This document shows, piece by piece, positions 4,614 to 58,315 of a stretch of DNA of 64,000 nt; within the stretch, counting starts at the first letter, position 1; each line of letters begins with the position of its first letter. The stretch is from the sequence record OR544955, one strand, 5' to 3'. This stretch comes from Escherichia phage vB_EcoP_EP32B. A model generated the notes under the pieces. It was not told the origin of the DNA, did no database searches, and worked only from the letters and a program-made list of their open reading frames with translations. A program made the position numbers and the translations under genes.

Positions 4614-6029
4614 ATGGCCTTCACTGTCACGTTATCTCCTCTAACTCCTACAGGGGTTATTGGAGGTTCACAAACATTCACTGCTACACCCGCAGGTGAA
4701 GCTCCAGACGGTACTATTACATACGTCTGGACTGTAGATGATATAACACAGGGCTCTACAGCTGCTACAATGGATTATACTCTTGCTTCTCCAGCAGGAA
4801 CAAAAAAAATTAAAGTGGTTGCAACTAATACACTTTCCGAAGGAGATCCGGAAATAGCTGAAGCATCAACAACTATCACTGTTAATAAGAAAGAAAATAA
4901 TTCCACTATCACTGTTACTCCGGCTTCTCCAGCGGCAGTAGAAATTGGAACAGCAACAACATTCACTGCTAATGTAAACAATAAACCTACTGGTGCTGCT
5001 ATTGCTTATACATGGAAAGTTGACGGGGTCGCTGTCGACGGTCAAAAACAATCAACCTTTGAATATACACCAACATCTGAAGGAACTAAGTCTATAACTT
5101 GCTCTGCCACAGTGACTGCAACTGATTACGTTGATAAAACGGTAGAATCATCAGCGGTTTCTTTGACTGTAAATAAAAAGGCTAATTCTTCAACGCTAAA
5201 AATTACACCAGAGTCTCCGACTACAGTCTTTGGTGTTCCTATTACTTTAACTGCAAATGTCTCTAGTGCACCTTCAGGTGCTACTACATCATTCCAGTGG
5301 TCAATGGATGACAGTAATATTCCAGATGCAACTTCTGCTACGTATAAATTCACTCCAACCGAGGTCGGAAGTAAAACTCTTAAATGCACCGTATCTGTTT
5401 CTGCAACAAATTATGTTACAAAAGAAATTTCAGCAGAAGCAACAGTAGTAACTAATAATGCGACATTTAATAGTGCCACCATTTCTTTATCTCCGCCATC
5501 AGTTAATACTACTGTTGGTGAAACTGCAACTTTAACAGCATCTGTTACTGGTGCTCCGGGTGATACTAATATTGTGTATTCTTGGAAGAAAGACAACGTA
5601 GCAGAAAGTAATTCTACTAATACTTACAGTATTGATACCTCCTCGGCAGGTACTCATACAATTAAAGTTGAAGCAGTATTAACTAAAGATAATTATACTT
5701 CAAAGACAATTAGTTCAACCGCTGAAGTTGTTATTGCTGAACGGACTCCAATTGAACCAGAAGGTGAACTACCTTATGTTCATCCTCTTCCGCATCGTAC
5801 TTCAGCTTACATCTGGTGCGGATGGTGGGTTATGGATGAAATCCAAAAAATGACTGAAGAAGGTAAAGATTGGAAAATTGACGATCCAGATAGTAAGTAT
5901 TACTTGCATCGTTATACGCTTCAGAAGATGATGAAAGACTACCCAGAAGTTGATGTTCAAGAATCACGTAATGGATACATCGTCCATAAAACTGCTTTGG
6001 AAACTGGTATCATCTATACATATCCATAA
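4614..6029 (+). CDS. hoc: Hoc-like outer capsid protein with four tandem Ig-like repeats
   Basis: 471 aa; four ~90 aa repeats each with (I/L)T(F/L)TA...Y(T/S)W motif plus a distinct C-terminal domain. Confidence 0.75.
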   Translation: MAFTVTLSPLTPTGVIGGSQTFTATPAGEAPDGTITYVWTVDDITQGSTAATMDYTLASPAGTKKIKVVATNTLSEGDPEIAEASTTITVNKKENNSTITVTPASPAAVEIGTATTFTANVNNKPTGAAIAYTWKVDGVAVDGQKQSTFEYTPTSEGTKSITCSATVTATDYVDKTVESSAVSLTVNKKANSSTLKITPESPTTVFGVPITLTANVSSAPSGATTSFQWSMDDSNIPDATSATYKFTPTEVGSKTLKCTVSVSATNYVTKEISAEATVVTNNATFNSATISLSPPSVNTTVGETATLTASVTGAPGDTNIVYSWKKDNVAESNSTNTYSIDTSSAGTHTIKVEAVLTKDNYTSKTISSTAEVVIAERTPIEPEGELPYVHPLPHRTSAYIWCGWWVMDEIQKMTEEGKDWKIDDPDSKYYLHRYTLQKMMKDYPEVDVQESRNGYIVHKTALETGIIYTYP

Positions 6030-6033
6030 TCAA

Positions 6034-6055
6034 GGGGCTTCGGCCCCTTTCTTCG
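6034..6055 (+). terminator. Rho-independent terminator after hoc
   Basis: GGGGC-TTCG-GCCCC hairpin followed by T-rich tract. Confidence 0.6.
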
Positions 6056-6126
6056 TTTTAAAGCATACAAACACATCTTGAGATTGATGTATATAATGGC
6101 ACAAACCAAATAATACGGGGTTGATT

Positions 6127-6321
6127 ATGAGAGCTGAAGTTGAAGTTTATACACTACATGAGGCGGGATTTTCATTCGTAGAAATTGCTCAAAAAATCGG
6201 TTTACAGCCTAAAGAAGTTGGATTACTATGGACTAAAGCCGAGACAGCTCGGTCAAAGTTTAAAGCAAAAGAAAAAGTTGTATACCGTAAACGTCTGATT
6301 AACAAAAAGGTGAAGAAATGA
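6127..6321 (+). CDS. Small basic protein (24.3 position)
   Basis: 64 aa from ATG 6127; possible HTH. Confidence 0.4.
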   Translation: MRAEVEVYTLHEAGFSFVEIAQKIGLQPKEVGLLWTKAETARSKFKAKEKVVYRKRLINKKVKK

Positions 6322-6569
6322 GTTTTGCACAGGAATTAAGAGAAAGGGCCCTGGCCACTAAAGCTAATTTGTTGAGTGATTTTATTACTAACTTCTCTGT
6401 GATGGCAGAGAAAGCCGCTGACAAAGGCCAGACACAATTTACATACTATCCATCAAAGAATGATTTAACTATCACCGAGCAAGTCGGGCAATGGCTTCGT
6501 GATAACGGCTTTCAGTACAAAATTAATCATGACCAGCGCGATGGTCATTGGATAGAAATCAAGTTCTAA
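6318..6569 (+). CDS. Hypothetical protein (24.2 position)
   Basis: 83 aa ORF overlapping previous stop. Confidence 0.4.
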   Translation: MSFAQELRERALATKANLLSDFITNFSVMAEKAADKGQTQFTYYPSKNDLTITEQVGQWLRDNGFQYKINHDQRDGHWIEIKF

Positions 6570-6688
6570 TATGCTTTACATTTTTTGATGGTATAATGAA
6601 TCTAGGTTCTATCCATTCAAATTAAACATCTGGACGGAGACAGAGTCTCTGCTAATTATTTTGATATTATTATTTATAATGGTGATTT

Positions 6689-7687
6689 ATGTTTAAGAAA
6701 TACAGCAGTCTTGAAAACCACTACAACTCTAAGTTTATTGAAAAACTCTACACTAATGGTTTGACTACTGGTGTTTGGGTAGCACGTGAGAAAATCCATG
6801 GGACCAACTTTAGTTTAATTATTGAACGTGACAACGTCACATGCGCCAAGCGCACAGGCCCTATTCTTCCGGCAGAAGATTTTTATGGTTATGAAATCGT
6901 ACTCAAGAAGTATGATAAAGCTATTAAAGCCGTTCAGGAATTCATGTACACAGCTCGAGCTGTATCATATCAAGTATTTGGTGAATTCGCTGGTGGTGGA
7001 ATCCAGAAAGGTGTTGACTACGGTGAAAAAGATTTTTATGTGTTCGATATCCTTATCAATACAGAAAGTTGTGATAATACGTATTTGACCGATTATGAAA
7101 TGCAAGATTTCTGTAATGAATTCGGTTTTAAAATGGCACCAATGCTTGGTCGTGGCACATTTGATGCTCTTATCATGATTCCAAACGACCTTGATTCTGT
7201 CTTAGCCGCTTATAATGCTACAGCGTCAGAAGACCTTGTCGAAGCAAATAATTGCGTATTTGATGCTAATGTTATTGGTAATAATACTGCGGAAGGTTAT
7301 GTTCTGAAGCCCTGTTTCCCTAAATGGTTGCCAAACGGTACTCGTGTAGCTATTAAGTGCAAGAACTCTAAATTCAGTGAAAAGAAAAAGTCTGATAAGC
7401 CTATTAAAACTCAGGTTCCATTAACCGAAATTGACAAAAACTTACTTGATGTTCTAGCTTGTTATGTTACATTAAATCGTGTTAATAATGTGATTTCTAA
7501 GATTGGGACTGTAACGCCAAAAGATTTTGGCAAAGTGATGGGATTGACTGTTCAAGATATTCTGGAAGAAACTTCTCGTGAAGGTATTGTATTAACATCA
7601 TCTGATAATCCGAATCTTGTTAAGAAAGAATTAGTCCGAATGGTGCAAGATGTTCTGCGTCCTGCATGGATTGAATTAGTATCATAA
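6689..7687 (+). CDS. rnlB: RNA ligase 2 (RnlB)
   Basis: 332 aa; KIHGTNFS ligase motif I near N-terminus; matches recalled T4 Rnl2. Confidence 0.85.
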
Positions 7688-52748: not shown

Positions 52749-53051
52749 ATGGCCTTAAGAGCGATAGCTGTCATGGCGATGCTGGGGTTTTTTGCAGCAA
52801 CAACTCCTATCGTTGGTACTGCATATACCGACCCATATTTTGACAACTTTATGGAATCAGGGATTAAAAACGTATATACTTTGTTTGAAATTCAAAATGT
52901 CGAGAATTCTGAAAAATTCTATAAGTATATGGCAAAGCATTACAAAAATAGCCCCTGTGATGATGCATTTGAATGTCATGAACAAGGCATAAAAACTGCC
53001 AGACAATTTGCCGAGTTCATGAAAATAAAATTAGAGCCTACATCTATCTAA
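52749..53051 (+). CDS. rI: Lysis inhibition regulator rI
   Basis: 100 aa; signal-anchor N-terminus; DPYFDNFMESGIKNVYTLFE...PCDDAFEC. Confidence 0.8.
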   Translation: MALRAIAVMAMLGFFAATTPIVGTAYTDPYFDNFMESGIKNVYTLFEIQNVENSEKFYKYMAKHYKNSPCDDAFECHEQGIKTARQFAEFMKIKLEPTSI

Positions 53052-53058
53052 TTTACTA

Positions 53059-53085
53059 GCCCCTTCCTTACGGTTGGGGCTTTTT
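53059..53085 (+). terminator. Rho-independent terminator after rI
   Basis: GCCCC...GGGGC hairpin plus T5. Confidence 0.6.
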
Positions 53086-53096
53086 GGCATCTATCA

Positions 53097-53147
53097 GTTT
53101 ACTTCTCCTCAGGTTGTGTTATAGTAGACCTTACTTACTAGAGGAGA
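53097..53147 (+). promoter_or_regulatory. PeSL-like early promoter with stem-loop
   Basis: GTTTAC 53097-53102; TGTGTTATAGT; inverted repeat TCTCCTC/GAGGAGA. Confidence 0.55.
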
Positions 53148-53152
53148 ACGTT

Positions 53153-53332
53153 ATGTCACGTAAAGAAAAAATTTCTAAGTTGATGTTTTTGATTGAAGAG
53201 TATGCTAATGCGGTGTCTGATTGGGAAAATGCTCATGGGTGCGAAGATGGAGACATCGACATTAACAGAGCTATGAAAAAGATGGCTGATACTCACACCG
53301 AATTGCAAATGTATGTTAACGAGATTATGTGA
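53153..53332 (+). CDS. Hypothetical protein (59 aa)
   Basis: ATG 53153 following the GAGGAGA stem/SD. Confidence 0.45.
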   Translation: MSRKEKISKLMFLIEEYANAVSDWENAHGCEDGDIDINRAMKKMADTHTELQMYVNEIM

Positions 53333-53339
53333 GGACATT

Positions 53340-53546
53340 ATGCTTTACGATTATACTGGAAAATCTGAAGACGGTGTACTTGAACTTTTACCTGAAAGCG
53401 CTGAAGACGATGATATGGTGGTGATGTTTTGTAAAAATGGCCCTGGGGATAAGGGATGGATTTATCTTCGCCAAGAAAATGACTTAATTGTTTTGGACCC
53501 TAAACAAGTTGAAGAACTTTATCAACATTTAAAACACAATCGGTAG
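53340..53546 (+). CDS. Hypothetical acidic protein (68 aa)
   Basis: ATG 53340. Confidence 0.45.
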   Translation: MLYDYTGKSEDGVLELLPESAEDDDMVVMFCKNGPGDKGWIYLRQENDLIVLDPKQVEELYQHLKHNR

Positions 53547-53586
53547 TTTACGTCTTGGTAGGACTATGATATAGTAATCCTACCAA
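53546..53586 (+). promoter_or_regulatory. PeSL-like early promoter with stem-loop
   Basis: GTTTAC 53546-53551; TATGATATAGT; 9 bp inverted repeat TTGGTAGGA/TCCTACCAA. Confidence 0.55.
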
Positions 53587-53603
53587 AACAAATGGAGAAC
53601 AAA

Positions 53604-53714
53604 ATGAAACTTTTGCTTATCGCTTATGTTGTAGTACAATACAATTATCCGATGTTTACTTATAACATGGTAAACGGCATAGTGAATCTTATTGAAACGA
53701 GTATGGTAAAATGA
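53604..53714 (+). CDS. Possible 36 aa hydrophobic micropeptide
   Basis: ATG 53604 after GGAGA SD; MKLLLIAYVVVQYNYPMF... Confidence 0.3.
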   Translation: MKLLLIAYVVVQYNYPMFTYNMVNGIVNLIETSMVK

Positions 53715-53890
53715 CCCGTGAACAAGCTAATAAATTGATGGACCTTATCCGTGACTTACGTGAAGCCGATTCAGATTTGAGTGATGTAGCTTATCATGCG
53801 GTAAATGATAACGGAGACTTTTATGAAAATCAGGTTGATGCTTGCCAGAATGCTTTGGTGAATTTTGTTGAAACTTTAATTGGTGAATAA
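53711..53890 (+). CDS. Hypothetical protein (59 aa)
   Basis: ATGA overlap with upstream. Confidence 0.4.
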   Translation: MTREQANKLMDLIRDLREADSDLSDVAYHAVNDNGDFYENQVDACQNALVNFVETLIGE

Positions 53891-53891
53891 T

Positions 53892-54422
53892 ATGAAAACT
53901 GTAATTGAAACAACCGAGTTGTTTGGTGATTTATGTATCGAAAAACGTGGTTATGTGTATGTTCTGACACAAGAAGATGATGCTGCTACTATTCTTCCTA
54001 TGGAACTGGACAAGATTTTGAAACTCAATCCGCCAGGCCATGCATCTGTAATTAACATCGATGAAGACCTTCAAGTTCGTTTTTATCACGGTCTTTATAG
54101 TGGGGTTAATATCGAAACTGAAGACGAATGTTTTTCTATCAATAATTGGAAAACATTCGTCACTAAGGTGAAAGAATTAATGGAATCTGAAACAGCCAAA
54201 AAGGCCAAACTTCAATGGGCTAAATGCCGTAATGCTTTTATTACAAATCAGGACCGCCCTGACTATACAACGGTCCTAGGCGTTAATCCTTCTTATGAAG
54301 ATGGTGATGTCGTAGTTATTCGTCAAATTGATGACCTTCGTCAACATATCGTTACATTAGACAAAGATGAAGCAGTTGCTCTTAAAGCTTATCTTGATTC
54401 TATTATACCGACTTTGAAATAA
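53892..54422 (+). CDS. Hypothetical protein
   Basis: 176 aa from ATG 53892. Confidence 0.5.
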   Translation: MKTVIETTELFGDLCIEKRGYVYVLTQEDDAATILPMELDKILKLNPPGHASVINIDEDLQVRFYHGLYSGVNIETEDECFSINNWKTFVTKVKELMESETAKKAKLQWAKCRNAFITNQDRPDYTTVLGVNPSYEDGDVVVIRQIDDLRQHIVTLDKDEAVALKAYLDSIIPTLK

Positions 54423-54431
54423 GGAATTATT

Positions 54432-54905
54432 ATGATTATCAATGAAAACTCTTGGCACTTTAAAATTTATGCCGCGTTTAATAGTACATGGAATCGCCCG
54501 AAAACGTTGTGTGCTTATTTTTGGAAAACGTTAATCCCGGTATTGGCTGTTTCAATTATTGGATTTGCGATTTTAGCAGCAGTCGTAATCATTGGCCAGG
54601 AAATTTTAACTAAATTCTTTGTTTTTAGTAGTCTATGGACATTAGTTCCGGCCTCAATTGGCGTAGGCATTTTAATGGTAGCAGTCATGGCTTTTATTGC
54701 TACCGGGTTGGTAATTGGTCCGTCTTGGTTGTTAGACAAATATAACGACAGAAAATATTATAAAGAAATCGAGCTCATTGCACAAAACCAAGAACGAATT
54801 AAAAATGGACTTGAACCTATTGAACGTAAGAAATCATTAATAGGTGAATACCTTAAAGCTCGTAAAGAAAAAATCTGTCCTACTCTTGAATATAAGGCTA
54901 AATGA
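54432..54905 (+). CDS. Membrane protein (about 3 TM helices)
   Basis: 157 aa; AAGGA SD; hydrophobic segments. Confidence 0.55.
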   Translation: MIINENSWHFKIYAAFNSTWNRPKTLCAYFWKTLIPVLAVSIIGFAILAAVVIIGQEILTKFFVFSSLWTLVPASIGVGILMVAVMAFIATGLVIGPSWLLDKYNDRKYYKEIELIAQNQERIKNGLEPIERKKSLIGEYLKARKEKICPTLEYKAK

Positions 54906-55891
54906 TGAAAACAATTATGAAAGGCTACTTTGGTAGCCACCTTTATGGAACGTCTACTCCTGAATCTGACGTCGATTTTAAAGAAATTTATGTCCCTCAT
55001 GCTCGTGATATCTTGACCGGTAACGTTAAAGAACACATGAGCAAGAACACGAATAACACATCTTCTAAGAACACAAAAGACGACGTGGACCATGAGTTGT
55101 ATAGTCTCAAATATTTCTTTAAACTAGCTGCGGATGGTGAAACCGTCGCATTAGATATGCTTCACACTCCACCAAGTTTAGTAGTTAAATCTGATTTGCC
55201 TGATGTATGGAAGTATATTCAAGATAACAGGTCTCGTTTCTATACCACTAACATGAAATCTTATTTAGGGTATGTCCGTAAGCAAGCTTCTAAATATGGT
55301 GTCAAGGGTTCTCGACTGGCTGTTCTTCGTCAAGCCCTTAAACGTTCTAATGAATGGGGACAATACTTTGATAATGGTGCAGTAATTCGTTTATCACATA
55401 TGAAGAATGTTCTGCCTGTAGGTGAATTTGCTTCGTGGGTTGAAACTGAAAACGAGAAAACAGGTAAGCAAACATTCTATAATCTGTTAGACCGTAAATT
55501 CCAAGACACATTAACTAATAAAGAGTTCAATGCCATCCTGGTTAAACTGGAAGAGAACTATGGTGAACGTGCTCGTAAGGCAGAAGCTAACGAAGGTATT
55601 GACTGGAAAGCATTGAGTCATGCATGTCGTGGTGGACTTCAATTATTAGAAATTTACAAAACAGGCGATCTGGTTTACCCACTTCAGGATGCTCCATTTA
55701 TTCTCGATGTTAAGCTTGGTAAACATACGTTTAAAACTGTACAAGAATTCCTAGAAGATATCGTTGACCAAGTTGAACATGCGTCAGAACAAGCTGCCAA
55801 GAACGGTATGCAACAAAAAGTAGATATGAGTTTCTGGGATGACTTCCTTGAACAAGTCTATCTCGAAAATCATAATTCTTACTATAAATAA
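54902..55891 (+). CDS. Predicted nucleotidyltransferase-fold protein
   Basis: 329 aa; N-terminal GSHLYGTSTPESDVDF matches the minimal NTase G[SG]...D.D motif. Confidence 0.55.
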   Translation: MMKTIMKGYFGSHLYGTSTPESDVDFKEIYVPHARDILTGNVKEHMSKNTNNTSSKNTKDDVDHELYSLKYFFKLAADGETVALDMLHTPPSLVVKSDLPDVWKYIQDNRSRFYTTNMKSYLGYVRKQASKYGVKGSRLAVLRQALKRSNEWGQYFDNGAVIRLSHMKNVLPVGEFASWVETENEKTGKQTFYNLLDRKFQDTLTNKEFNAILVKLEENYGERARKAEANEGIDWKALSHACRGGLQLLEIYKTGDLVYPLQDAPFILDVKLGKHTFKTVQEFLEDIVDQVEHASEQAAKNGMQQKVDMSFWDDFLEQVYLENHNSYYK

Positions 55892-55922
55892 GTAGATAAA
55901 TAACCATTAACTTGAGGTAAAT

Positions 55923-56204
55923 ATGAAAAAATTAGTAATTGGTTTATTCGCAGTAATGATGGCATTCTCTGTTGGTGCTACCACGGGTGCTGCTGGCGGT
56001 AGTGCAGGAGCTGGTGGTAACCAGTCTTCTGGGCCTTCTAATGGTTCGGTAAATGCATCACATTCTCAGGGTATTGAGAACATTAGATCAAGCTATATTA
56101 ATAGCACGGCCGGACAAGCAACTGAAGCATGGTCAAAGGGCCGAGTAGTTACTCGCTCCGTATTCTGTGATATGCCTAATTATGTTGCTAAGTGCGATAA
56201 GTAA
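55923..56204 (+). CDS. Secreted Gly/Ser-rich small protein
   Basis: 93 aa; signal peptide; GAAGGSAGAGGNQSSG. Confidence 0.5.
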   Translation: MKKLVIGLFAVMMAFSVGATTGAAGGSAGAGGNQSSGPSNGSVNASHSQGIENIRSSYINSTAGQATEAWSKGRVVTRSVFCDMPNYVAKCDK

Positions 56205-56208
56205 ATGT

Positions 56209-56228
56209 GGGGACCTTCGGGTCCCTTT
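56209..56228 (+). terminator. Rho-independent terminator
   Basis: GGGGACC-TTCG-GGTCCC followed by TTT. Confidence 0.55.
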
Positions 56229-56255
56229 AGGGGGTCAAAATATTTTTAAAAAGTA

Positions 56256-56290
56256 GTGTACATGCTTTTAGGATATGTTATTATAGACCT
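56256..56290 (+). promoter_or_regulatory. PeSL-like early promoter
   Basis: GTGTAC -35 variant; TATGTTATTATAGACCTATCG. Confidence 0.5.
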
Positions 56291-56322
56291 ATCGAAACGA
56301 AATGAGTAAATTGGAGAATAAA

Positions 56323-57303
56323 ATGTTCAACGTTCAAATCAAAAAAGGTATCTATCGTAATAACGAAATCTCTGGTTCTTATGTTGCCACAAAGACCTGG
56401 TTCCCGGCAAAGCTTAATCCTGAATGTTCCCACTTAGGTGATGGTAAAATTTTCGTTATGATTGATGGTTCTGAACGTGGAGTATGGGTCTTCAAATCAG
56501 ACATCGTAATGGAAGGAGTTGAGACATCACCGGTTGCAGTTGTTGAAAGCACTGAAGATATGAAAACTCGTATCAACAAACGCTTTAAAGTAATGAACAT
56601 GATGACGAATGGCATTATCGATGGTAAAATTCGTTCACTCATTATTTCAGGTGCAGCTGGTATTGGTAAGACGTATTCTCTGGATAAAGCACTTAATAAC
56701 GCTAATGATAATGGTTTCATCAAATACAAAAGCATTAATGGTAAAATCTCCGGTATTGGCCTTTACGAACAACTTTGGCTCAACCGTGATGCAGACAGCG
56801 TTCTCTTAATCGACGACGTTTACGTATTCTCGGATATGGACATCTTGAACCTTCTTAAAGCAGCATTAGATACTGGAGATAAACGCAAAGTTTGCTGGAG
56901 CACGGCGTCATCTTATCTCGATGATAAGGGTATTGATAAAGAATTTGAGTTTGAAGGTACTATCGTTTTCATTACAAACGTTGATATCGATAAAGAGTTA
57001 GAACGCGGTTCGAAACTTGCTCCGCACCTTCAAGCTTTAGTATCTCGTTCAGTGTATCTCGACCTTGGAGTACACTCTAATGAAGAGATTATGGTTCGAG
57101 TTGAAGATGTAATATTATCTACTGACATGATGCAGAAACGTGGTCTGACGGATGCAGAAACGTATAAAGCATTGTCCTGGATGAAGGCTAACGTATCTCG
57201 TCTTCGCAATGTATCATTACGTACGGCTCTTTATGTAGCAGATTTTATTTCAACTGATAAAGATGGTTGGGAGGAAATCTCCGAAGTAACTTTACTGAAA
57301 TAA
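56323..57303 (+). CDS. AAA+ family ATPase with N-terminal extra domain
   Basis: 326 aa; Walker A GAAGIGKT, Walker B VLLIDDV, sensor-1-like FITN. Confidence 0.6.
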   Translation: MFNVQIKKGIYRNNEISGSYVATKTWFPAKLNPECSHLGDGKIFVMIDGSERGVWVFKSDIVMEGVETSPVAVVESTEDMKTRINKRFKVMNMMTNGIIDGKIRSLIISGAAGIGKTYSLDKALNNANDNGFIKYKSINGKISGIGLYEQLWLNRDADSVLLIDDVYVFSDMDILNLLKAALDTGDKRKVCWSTASSYLDDKGIDKEFEFEGTIVFITNVDIDKELERGSKLAPHLQALVSRSVYLDLGVHSNEEIMVRVEDVILSTDMMQKRGLTDAETYKALSWMKANVSRLRNVSLRTALYVADFISTDKDGWEEISEVTLLK

Positions 57304-57441
57304 GCTTATAGGAAGTTCTGAGGTAACAAAAGCCATAAAGATGAATAATCATATGGCTTACCTCAAAGAAGGACACCAGGAACCTACTGAGGGCATAGAA
57401 ATATTTAAAAATAATGTTGTACAAATCAAAGAGGCTATGTT

Positions 57442-57729
57442 ATGGATTTTATGCAAAAAATTAAAGCCGCAGTCGAACTGTATGCTCATCGTATGGTTAG
57501 TTCTACAATGCAATATAGCGAGGAGGTTCGCCAGGACTCTTCCTTGAAAGGAAAAACTAAAGCCTTAATTACCTTAGACCGTTTGCAAAAGAATGTCATA
57601 GAGATGCTCCAGTACGACAAGGGTGTATATAAGAAAGAACAGGAAGAGAAACTTAAATCTGAAAAATTACAAAAAATCCCGAAGTCGGTTTGGTTCAGTG
57701 GAAAAAATACCGAAAAAAGTTTCTTTTAG
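57442..57729 (+). CDS. Hypothetical basic protein
   Basis: 95 aa; AAGAGG SD. Confidence 0.45.
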   Translation: MDFMQKIKAAVELYAHRMVSSTMQYSEEVRQDSSLKGKTKALITLDRLQKNVIEMLQYDKGVYKKEQEEKLKSEKLQKIPKSVWFSGKNTEKSFF

Positions 57730-57731
57730 TT

Positions 57732-57765
57732 GTTTACAAGGTCTATGTTTATGTTATTATAGACC
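57732..57765 (+). promoter_or_regulatory. PeSL-like early promoter with stem-loop
   Basis: GTTTAC 57732-57737; TATGTTATTATAG; inverted repeat GGTCTAT/ATAGACC. Confidence 0.55.
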
Positions 57766-57787
57766 TATCAACTACTGGAGGTAAAAC

Positions 57788-58315
57788 ATGAACGCTAAAG
57801 ATATTTTCAACCTGGTAAATTATAACGACGGTAAATTTAAATCCGAAGCACAAAGCAAGTTCTTTAATGACGTTGCTTATGGTAACGAGATTACTGTGGA
57901 CGGAGGTCAGATTTTCAAATCTCGCTGGAATTGGATTGTTATCATCGATTCAGTTGGAATTGTGGAAGTCTACAAAAACACTAACAAAAAACGTACATTA
58001 TTCTGGTCTCGTGAAACTAACGAGCAGTACAAAAAGGATAAAGCATCTCGTTTATCCAAAGTAACCCAGGAAGATATCGAGTTTATCAAGAAAGATATCG
58101 AGATGTACGAAAATTTAATCGCTGAAGACCAGGCAGTACTCGATAAGTTTGATGAAATTAAAGCTTCTCGTGAAATCCCTGACTTCATGAAAGAAACAGT
58201 AAACGAACGATACGCTCTCACTTCAGAACGTATTGCAAACTATACAAAACAGAAATCAGAACGTATTAGTACTCTTCGGAAATTTGAAGAACGTTTAAAG
58301 ACGGTTCACGCATAA
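57788..58315 (+). CDS. Hypothetical protein
   Basis: 175 aa; GGAGG SD. Confidence 0.5.
   Translation: MNAKDIFNLVNYNDGKFKSEAQSKFFNDVAYGNEITVDGGQIFKSRWNWIVIIDSVGIVEVYKNTNKKRTLFWSRETNEQYKKDKASRLSKVTQEDIEFIKKDIEMYENLIAEDQAVLDKFDEIKASREIPDFMKETVNERYALTSERIANYTKQKSERISTLRKFEERLKTVHA

Follow-up and report, generated by a model that had tools for sequence, protein, structure and literature searches.

The subject of this report is a nucleotidyltransferase (NTase) encoded by Escherichia phage vB_EcoP_EP32B in a 64,000-nucleotide (nt) stretch of its genome (sequence record OR544955; the whole of this stretch is called the window below), together with the small membrane protein encoded immediately upstream of it. 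The open reading frame (ORF) for the NTase, of 329 amino acids (aa), is almost certainly the Mosigvirus (RB69-type) ortholog of T4 NrdC.11, and NrdC.11-type enzymes form, as judged from their sequences, a distinct subfamily of the RlaP family whose cellular members are embedded in operons for RNA repair. The T-even phages provided the first system for RNA repair, in which Pnkp and RNA ligase 1 (Rnl1) act against PrrC. The interpretation that we favour, and consider probable if by no means secure, is that NrdC.11 would add untemplated nucleotides to the 3' ends of damaged RNA ahead of repair by Pnkp and Rnl1, and would thereby serve as a counter-defence.

The assignment to nrdC.11 is supported by sequence identity and by gene order. 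The region of the window from 53000 to 58000 shares 97.8% nucleotide identity with Shigella phage phi25-307, a Mosigvirus of the RB69 group, and the window runs opposite to the usual T4 map. In tblastn searches, the NTase shared 99% aa identity with RB69 nrdC.11 (NP_861793) and, across its whole length, 78% with T4 nrdC.11 (T4p095, NP_049709), and the records of both phages carry the annotation 'nucleotidyltransferase' for this gene. The flanks are orthologous as well, with MobD.1/y05I (Pfam PF24449/PF24448) upstream and NrdC.10 (phrog_1250) downstream, as in T4 and RB69. A preliminary description of this DNA had recognised no T4 counterpart; that statement was mistaken, because T4 nrdC.11 is orthologous, its flanking genes included. 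The NTase is thus already catalogued and annotated and belongs to a named family, RlaP, whose chemistry has recently been established for other members. Many GenBank and UniRef entries label NrdC.11 orthologs, and also nrdC.10 and other neighbours, as 'thioredoxin'. A Pfam scan found no thioredoxin domain in the NrdC.11-type NTase, and the label appears to have spread from the gene name nrdC.x.

Membership of the RlaP family is documented by profile searches, in which residues 7-152 of the NTase matched Pfam PF10127 with an E-value of 7.7e-13 and 49.1 bits against a gathering threshold of 23, bearing out the earlier assignment to the DNA polymerase beta (Pol-beta)-type nucleotidyltransferases; the protein also matched phrog_388 (E 2.6e-126). 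PF10127 is designated 'RNA repair pathway DNA polymerase beta family', and the name RlaP denotes an RNA ligase-associating Pol-beta, the genes of which accompany RNA ligase genes (PMC12776372). A first homolog search recovered near-identical Mosigvirus proteins only, and a diverse set was instead assembled from 50%-identity representatives, among which an exhaustive search identified 3214 relatives at E <= 1e-3. Conservation was scored in 146 representatives of the clade, all but one of which (145/146) match PF10127. Residues G11, Y132 and R243 are invariant in this set, and S12, D23, D25, D61, D63, D85, K131, R138, R223, K236, H240 and K271 are at least 90% conserved.

These conserved positions include the predicted catalytic residues. 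The signature motif of minimal Pol-beta-type enzymes, GSHLYGTSTPESDVDF, is present as the preliminary description had stated, at residues 11-26 and not at the very start of the protein as it had been placed there. A D-V-D triplet further on probably contains the third catalytic carboxylate, the choice between D61 and D63 being one that we infer. Alignments of the clade and of canonical RlaPs from bacterial loci were compared by hhalign in local mode, yielding a probability of 93.8% (E 1.7e-7) over residues 3-130. In this comparison the GSHLYGTSTPESDVDF stretch falls on GS...DYD of canonical RlaP, the D61-D63 segment on the canonical 'lD' (taken as the invariant D95), and D85 on the Glu of 'EWL' (taken as E117), the invariant residues of canonical RlaP being S49, G50, D62, D64, D95 and E117. 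All of the catalytic motifs of RlaP, namely hG[GS], [DE]x[DE] and a third carboxylate, accordingly have counterparts in the phage enzyme at G11/S12, D23/D25, D61/D63 and D85.

[quoted passage not shown] Canonical RlaPs such as PfRlaP and PaRlaP have in common with it a Pol-beta core carrying GS, DxD and a third Asp. In the PfRlaP crystal structure, an N-terminal NTase domain and a helical C-terminal one together form a substrate cleft, and the helical half of the phage model may correspond to the latter. The NrdC.11 type is ~60-70 residues longer and constitutes a separate subfamily. When the model was compared with the PDB by Foldseek, the NTase folds anticipated for it were indeed recovered, though weakly: the best match was kanamycin nucleotidyltransferase, ANT(4') (1kny, E 2.7e-3), followed by 3c18 and HalB. 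A viral structure library contains many phage and giant-virus 'nucleotidyltransferases' that share the fold, and searches of PDB sequences with the NTase sequence and with the 146-sequence profile gave no meaningful match.

The gene neighbourhoods of cellular relatives connect the NrdC.11 type with RNA repair. When one genome from each prokaryotic species was scanned, 156 NrdC.11-type cellular genes, with 33-52% identity, were identified; they come from Desulfobacterales, Nitrospirota, Alphaproteobacteria and some archaea, and several lie on megabase contigs. In 39 dereplicated loci, 144 larger neighbours were scanned against Pfam. The commonest neighbour is a second, canonical RlaP (9 of 39 loci, E down to 1e-79), located directly downstream; other recurring families are DEAD-box helicase (4), AAA_33 kinase (3), Metallophos (3), PNKP_ligase (2) and RtcB (2). 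The order in Asticcacaulis is Pnkp, NrdC.11-like, RlaP and Macro domain, and that in Nitrosospira is NrdC.11-like, RlaP and Hen1. With Pnkp, Hen1, RtcB and canonical RlaP all found beside cellular genes of the clade, the association with RNA repair that defines RlaP applies therefore to this subfamily specifically. The bacterial NrdC.11 type often stands beside a canonical RlaP and does not replace it, and some of the tandems lie inside Pnkp/Hen1 operons; their recurrence suggests that the two subfamilies carry out different jobs in one pathway.

What such an enzyme might do is indicated by recent biochemical work. Carruthers, Fatma and Huang (bioRxiv Dec 2025; PMC12776372) assigned T4NrdC.11 to RlaP, in cluster 5 of a similarity network, and showed that two Pseudomonas RlaPs from rtcB-rlaP-rtcA operons, PfRlaP and PaRlaP, add 1-2 nucleoside monophosphates (NMPs) or deoxynucleoside monophosphates (dNMPs) onto the 3'-OH of RNA. 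These enzymes work best with Mn2+, are inactive on DNA and protein, act on the 5' half of a cleaved-tRNA mimic in preference to its acceptor end, also label full-length tRNAs and rRNA-sized RNAs, and partly restore aminoacylation of a tRNA missing one anticodon-loop nucleotide (PMC12776372). The authors proposed that RlaP is an antidote to nucleotide-excising ribotoxins such as RloC, a nuclease described as excising the wobble nucleotide (PMC2610378, PMC3458546). The same role had been predicted from comparative genomics of jumbo phages, in which the distribution of RlaP parallels that of RNA ligases (Iyer et al. 2021, PMC7824862). Addition of NMPs to RNA 3' ends has been measured on the Pseudomonas RlaPs only, and orthology, family membership, catalytic motifs, fold and the RNA-repair neighbourhoods of the clade were computed in the present analysis; that phage NrdC.11 carries out this reaction, on which substrate it acts in vivo, and that it serves in counter-defence are what we infer from the two together.

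In the mechanism envisaged, a two-metal Pol-beta active site built from G11-S12, D23, D25 and D61/D63 would extend the 3'-OH of damaged RNA, above all of tRNA halves, by one or two untemplated nucleotides, after which the phage enzymes Pnkp (pseT) and RNA ligase 1 (rnlA) would restore usable tRNA. Such fill-in would matter when a host anticodon nuclease goes beyond simple cutting and removes a nucleotide, as RloC does. The RB69 genome encodes both pseT and rnlA, and the pathway that they constitute makes and uses 3'-OH/5'-P ends, which are compatible with the RlaP product (PMC12776372). In this scheme nrdC.11 would be an early, non-essential accessory gene, and in this lineage the membrane-protein gene would share a transcript with the NTase gene, to which it is closely coupled. 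A T4 fragment spanning nrdC.11-mobD.3 is deletable (PMC9825161), and in the genome of one such viable T4 mutant, OL964745, all that is left of nrdC.11 is its last ~39 codons; on laboratory hosts, therefore, the gene is non-essential. The counter-defence function suggested at the outset is plausible.

Several observations weigh against 3'-end fill-in by NrdC.11. Only the N-terminal ~130 residues match canonical RlaP (Pfam profile positions 23-148 of 249; hhalign residues 3-130), and the C-terminal half, including the beta-hairpin at ~177-201, is clade-specific and does not align to canonical RlaP; substrate choice could therefore differ. Searches of the PDB copies by sequence, profile or fold did not return the crystal structure of PfRlaP among their matches. 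In T-even phages nrdC.11 adjoins neither an RNA ligase nor a Pnkp gene, these lying ~80 kb off in RB69, and the phage gene studied here likewise differs from canonical rlaP in not being adjacent to a ligase gene. A literature search turned up no study in which NrdC.11 of T4 or RB69 had been tested biochemically or genetically. Finally, untemplated addition would supply the correct nucleotide only sometimes, a difficulty raised by the authors of the Pseudomonas study themselves (PMC12776372).

The membrane protein encoded upstream belongs to phrog_944 (E 5e-53), and its RB69 counterpart is RB69ORF104c. Hydropathy peaks at residues ~33-57 and ~63-101 are followed by a Lys/Arg-rich tail, and an AlphaFold model from a 12-sequence alignment, of low confidence (pLDDT 68.5), forms a helical hairpin (H23-61/H66-124). 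The protein had been described as having multiple transmembrane segments; its membrane character stands, and with two hydropathy peaks and a hairpin model it is best described as a predicted two-helix transmembrane protein, its two ends both lying in the cytoplasm. When 18 diverse family members were aligned, conserved motifs were seen at the N terminus (SWH[YF]..(P)xxLCxYFWK) and the C terminus (Y[IL]KA[KR]KxK[IV]CPx[IL]E[FW]) flanking a variable hydrophobic core, with W8, C27, Y29, K147 and C149 invariant. Searches of Pfam, NCBIfam, PADLOC and the PDB returned no match for it.

The membrane gene lies directly 5' of nrdC.11 in RB69, in this phage, in many T2-type Tequatrovirus genomes, and in Dhakavirus and Mosigvirus, whereas in T4 the gene for the HNH homing endonuclease MobD occupies its slot between mobD.1 and nrdC.11. 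Jiaodavirus and Acinetobacter T4-like phages have 1-3 small genes between the membrane gene and the NTase gene. The match to the membrane protein is split into two pieces in one T2 record, possibly by a frameshift. A search with the homolog from phage ICP1 yielded 12 proteins, and the neighbourhoods of the membrane gene were surveyed in 72 loci, grouped into 40 clusters at 60% identity. An NTase gene was found within 4 kb in 9 of the 40 clusters, all nine on contigs T4-like in size, and in none of the other 31, examples of which are Vibrio phage ICP1 (ORF169), Erwinia phages and Pseudomonas phages. Nor did any membrane-protein homolog lie beside the cellular NrdC.11-type NTases in the loci scanned. 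The pairing of the two proteins is not obligatory: with 31 of 40 membrane-gene lineages devoid of a nearby NTase, cellular NTases devoid of the membrane protein, and a T4 NTase that has no membrane gene before it, the pair is not an obligate two-component system. The membrane protein is a separate conserved phage gene, and the NTase does not need it.

Where the membrane gene occurs apart from the NTase, it has been found in unrelated phages close to enzymes of RNA repair. The 31 NTase-less lineages yielded 105 larger neighbours, for which RNA_ligase (PF09414) is the top Pfam family, with three members, and one HAD_SAK_2 'Swiss Army Knife RNA repair' domain is present. The membrane gene of Pakpunavirus lies 12 nt upstream of a gene for an Rnl1-type ligase (PF09511), itself preceded by a metallophosphoesterase gene and followed by one for an AAA_33 kinase; in Cronobacter phage S13 the membrane gene is followed, 275 nt downstream, by an Rnl2 gene, and in a metagenomic locus (L073) an Rnl2-type ligase gene lies ~1 kb upstream. 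The third PF09414 neighbour counted in the Pfam scan was not located by local phmmer. This proximity, noticed post hoc and uncorrected for shared ancestry or for the clustering of early genes, is suggestive, and we think it doubtful that the phrog_944 protein is a phage-specific accessory of RNA-repair modules and not a bystander.

Other explanations for the NTase can be set against these data. One retains the chemistry but moves the target to the acceptor (CCA) end of tRNA, or to some other RNA end, such that the enzyme would act in tRNA maturation or maintenance during infection. Gene order around two distant clade members in phages favours such a role: in Alishewanella phage Slicko01 the NrdC.11-like gene directly follows, and overlaps the stop of, a gene whose product is a class II CCA-adding enzyme with PolyA_pol head, RNA-binding and HD domains, a macro-domain gene also lying close by, and in Rhodobacter phage RcXuper it directly precedes a tRNA gene cluster. 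The labelling of full-length tRNAs and rRNA-sized RNAs by the Pseudomonas enzymes is also in its favour; yet these enzymes favour the 5' half of a cleaved tRNA over the acceptor end, the bacterial members of the clade are found in break-repair operons of the Pnkp/Hen1 and RtcB kinds, and the window is devoid of tRNA genes, so that we regard an acceptor-end function as unlikely, though as a reasonable variation on the favoured reading. Adenylylation of a small molecule or protein, for which aminoglycoside NTases, MNT antitoxins, DrrA and GlnE offer precedents, is in our estimation more improbable still. The top-ranking Foldseek match to kanamycin NTase and the uncharacterised, clade-specific C-terminal domain can be cited in its support. 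In the two-domain NTases 1kny and 3c18, too, the NTase domain is N-terminal and a helical bundle makes up the C-terminal part. The likeness to these structures is at the level of the fold only, with template-modelling (TM) scores of 0.3-0.4, as expected of any minimal NTase core, 9% identity, and different substrates. No sequence match to the precedent families was found; MntA of the MNT type VII toxin-antitoxin system was rejected as a candidate, since its NCBIfam model scored 12.9 bits where the cut-off is 60 and matched only 18 residues (E 0.076), and the ORF list and the Pfam scan of the neighbourhood contain no separate HEPN gene adjacent to the NTase gene. The Pfam family and gene neighbourhoods instead indicate RNA repair, and proteins are not labelled by the Pseudomonas RlaPs (PMC12776372).

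The tight pairing of a membrane gene with an NTase gene also brings to mind Hailong, in which, according to a review (PMC13434031), the transmembrane channel HalA is kept closed by oligodeoxyadenylate from the NTase HalB. A Hailong-like phage module might confer exclusion or keep the channel of a host Hailong system closed. The order is the same, membrane gene then NTase gene with overlapping or abutting stop and start codons, and in the NrdC.11 clade Y132 is invariant and Y15 and Y124 nearly so. HalB, however, is described in that review as a 217-aa protein that builds DNA (oligo-dA) on a Tyr primer, and it has no sequence relationship to the phage NTase. Sequence searches, even with profiles, detected no similarity to PDB chains at E <= 10, HalB chains 9dbh and 9dbj included, and homology to HalA was likewise absent. 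PADLOC gave no match for either the NTase or the membrane protein (PADLOC-DB 2.0 may predate Hailong). The separate occurrence of the two genes in T4, in the 31 membrane-gene lineages and in cellular genomes argues against an obligate two-gene operon, and the NTase family acts on RNA, not DNA, substrates (PMC12776372); a Hailong-like function thus appears very improbable. The action on nucleotide second messengers put forward in the preliminary description, whereby the NTase would make, cap or destroy such molecules against CBASS, Thoeris or Pycsar, has least to commend it, and we accord it hardly any credence. CD-NTases share the Pol-beta fold, a generic likeness only, but the PADLOC search was negative, no CD-NTase/SMODS Pfam model or CD-NTase/CBASS-type structure was matched, and family and gene context indicate RNA ends, on which the family acts (PMC12776372).

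At the level of the DNA, both ORFs were found in the ORF list and in the raw sequence where they had been reported, and both are, on the evidence of their homologs, genuine and not chance ORFs: homologs of the NTase occur in 1542 phage records and those of the membrane protein in 1122. The NTase gene follows and overlaps the small membrane-protein gene, as had been observed, with an ATGA overlap in which the ATG at 54902-54904 runs into the TGA at 54903-54905. A second in-frame ATG is present at 54905-54907. Because the sole Shine-Dalgarno-like AAGG lies 7 nt from this second ATG and 4 nt from the first, and because most database entries for the NTase are of 328 aa, the true start may be 54905, giving a 1-nt TGATG overlap. 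The tight coupling inferred earlier for the two genes holds with either start codon. A consensus scan upstream of the pair detected two promoter-like sites, the nearer of them a candidate start, on our reading, of a transcription unit containing both genes; together with the hairpin carrying CCCCTTCCTTACGGTTGGGGCTTTTT, the two sites probably set the transcription units upstream of the pair. Promoter-like sites are no more frequent in this region than in shuffled sequence. Coordinates of these and other features are listed in the table.

Table. Features of the nrdC.11 region (window coordinates unless a record or locus is named) and of comparison loci
Feature	Location	Strand	Details
Membrane-protein gene	54432-54905	+	157-aa ORF, TGA stop 54903-54905
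NTase gene (nrdC.11 ortholog)	54902-55891	+	329-aa ORF; 328 aa from second ATG
Gene junction	54894-54907	+	AAGG 54894-54897, ATG 54902, TGA 54903-54905, ATG 54905; read from sequence
GSHLYGTSTPESDVDF motif	54932-54979	+	Codons 11-26; hG[GS] and first two predicted metal-binding carboxylates, D23 and D25
D-V-D	55082-55090	+	Codons 61-63, start of model strand 62-68
D85	55154-55156	+	Conserved Asp in ALDMLH helix, towards active-site region
T4-early-type promoter-like site	53546-53575	+	GTTTAC, 17 nt, TATAGT, upstream TG; ~860 nt 5' of pair; consensus scan
Terminator-like hairpin and T-run CCCCTTCCTTACGGTTGGGGCTTTTT, then promoter-like site	53060-53125		Promoter-like site: TTTACT, 16 nt, TATAGT
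93-aa ORF between nrdC.11 and nrdC.10	55923-56204		Signal-peptide-like N-terminus, Gly/Ser/Ala-rich; phrog_2243
Terminator-like hairpin after 93-aa ORF	56220-56236		
NrdC.10 ortholog	56302-57303		333 aa, phrog_1250; two genes downstream of NTase
T4 mobD	NC_000866 56429-57208		Overlaps nrdC.11 start by 17 nt
NrdC.11-type and canonical RlaP tandems	L092, L105, L115, L127, L130, L133, L142, L149; ~5000-6800 each		Canonical RlaP of ~255-277 aa
phrog_944 loci near RNA-repair enzymes	L019 2501-3837; L006 4001-5816; L073 1071-3503		

The neighbouring genes offer a few further observations. The NrdC.10 ortholog shows weak P-loop/AAA/STAND-type Pfam matches over residues ~107-173, all under the cut-offs, and is a putative conserved ATPase. 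The 93-aa ORF that precedes it has a weak YbgS-like match (E 0.007). Near the membrane-protein homolog in phage ICP1, ORF165 (L004 1686-2993) strongly matches the Pfam CapR homology domain, in four repeats (E 5.8e-63).

For annotation, the gene should read nrdC.11, an RlaP-family RNA nucleotidyltransferase, and neither 'hypothetical' nor 'thioredoxin'. A nucleotide-restoring role for RlaP has already been proposed by two groups; new here are the finding that the NrdC.11-type subfamily, beyond RlaP generally, is embedded in bacterial Pnkp/Hen1 and RtcB operons, its frequent tandem arrangement with a canonical RlaP in bacteria, and the recurrence of the membrane protein beside RNA ligases in unrelated phages. 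Should the membrane protein prove to be an accessory of these modules, a membrane-anchored or membrane-regulated element of RNA repair in phages would have gone unrecognised until now. If 3'-end fill-in by NrdC.11 is correct, a third, nucleotide-restoring enzyme would explain how T-even phages could cope with nucleotide-excising anticodon nucleases such as RloC.

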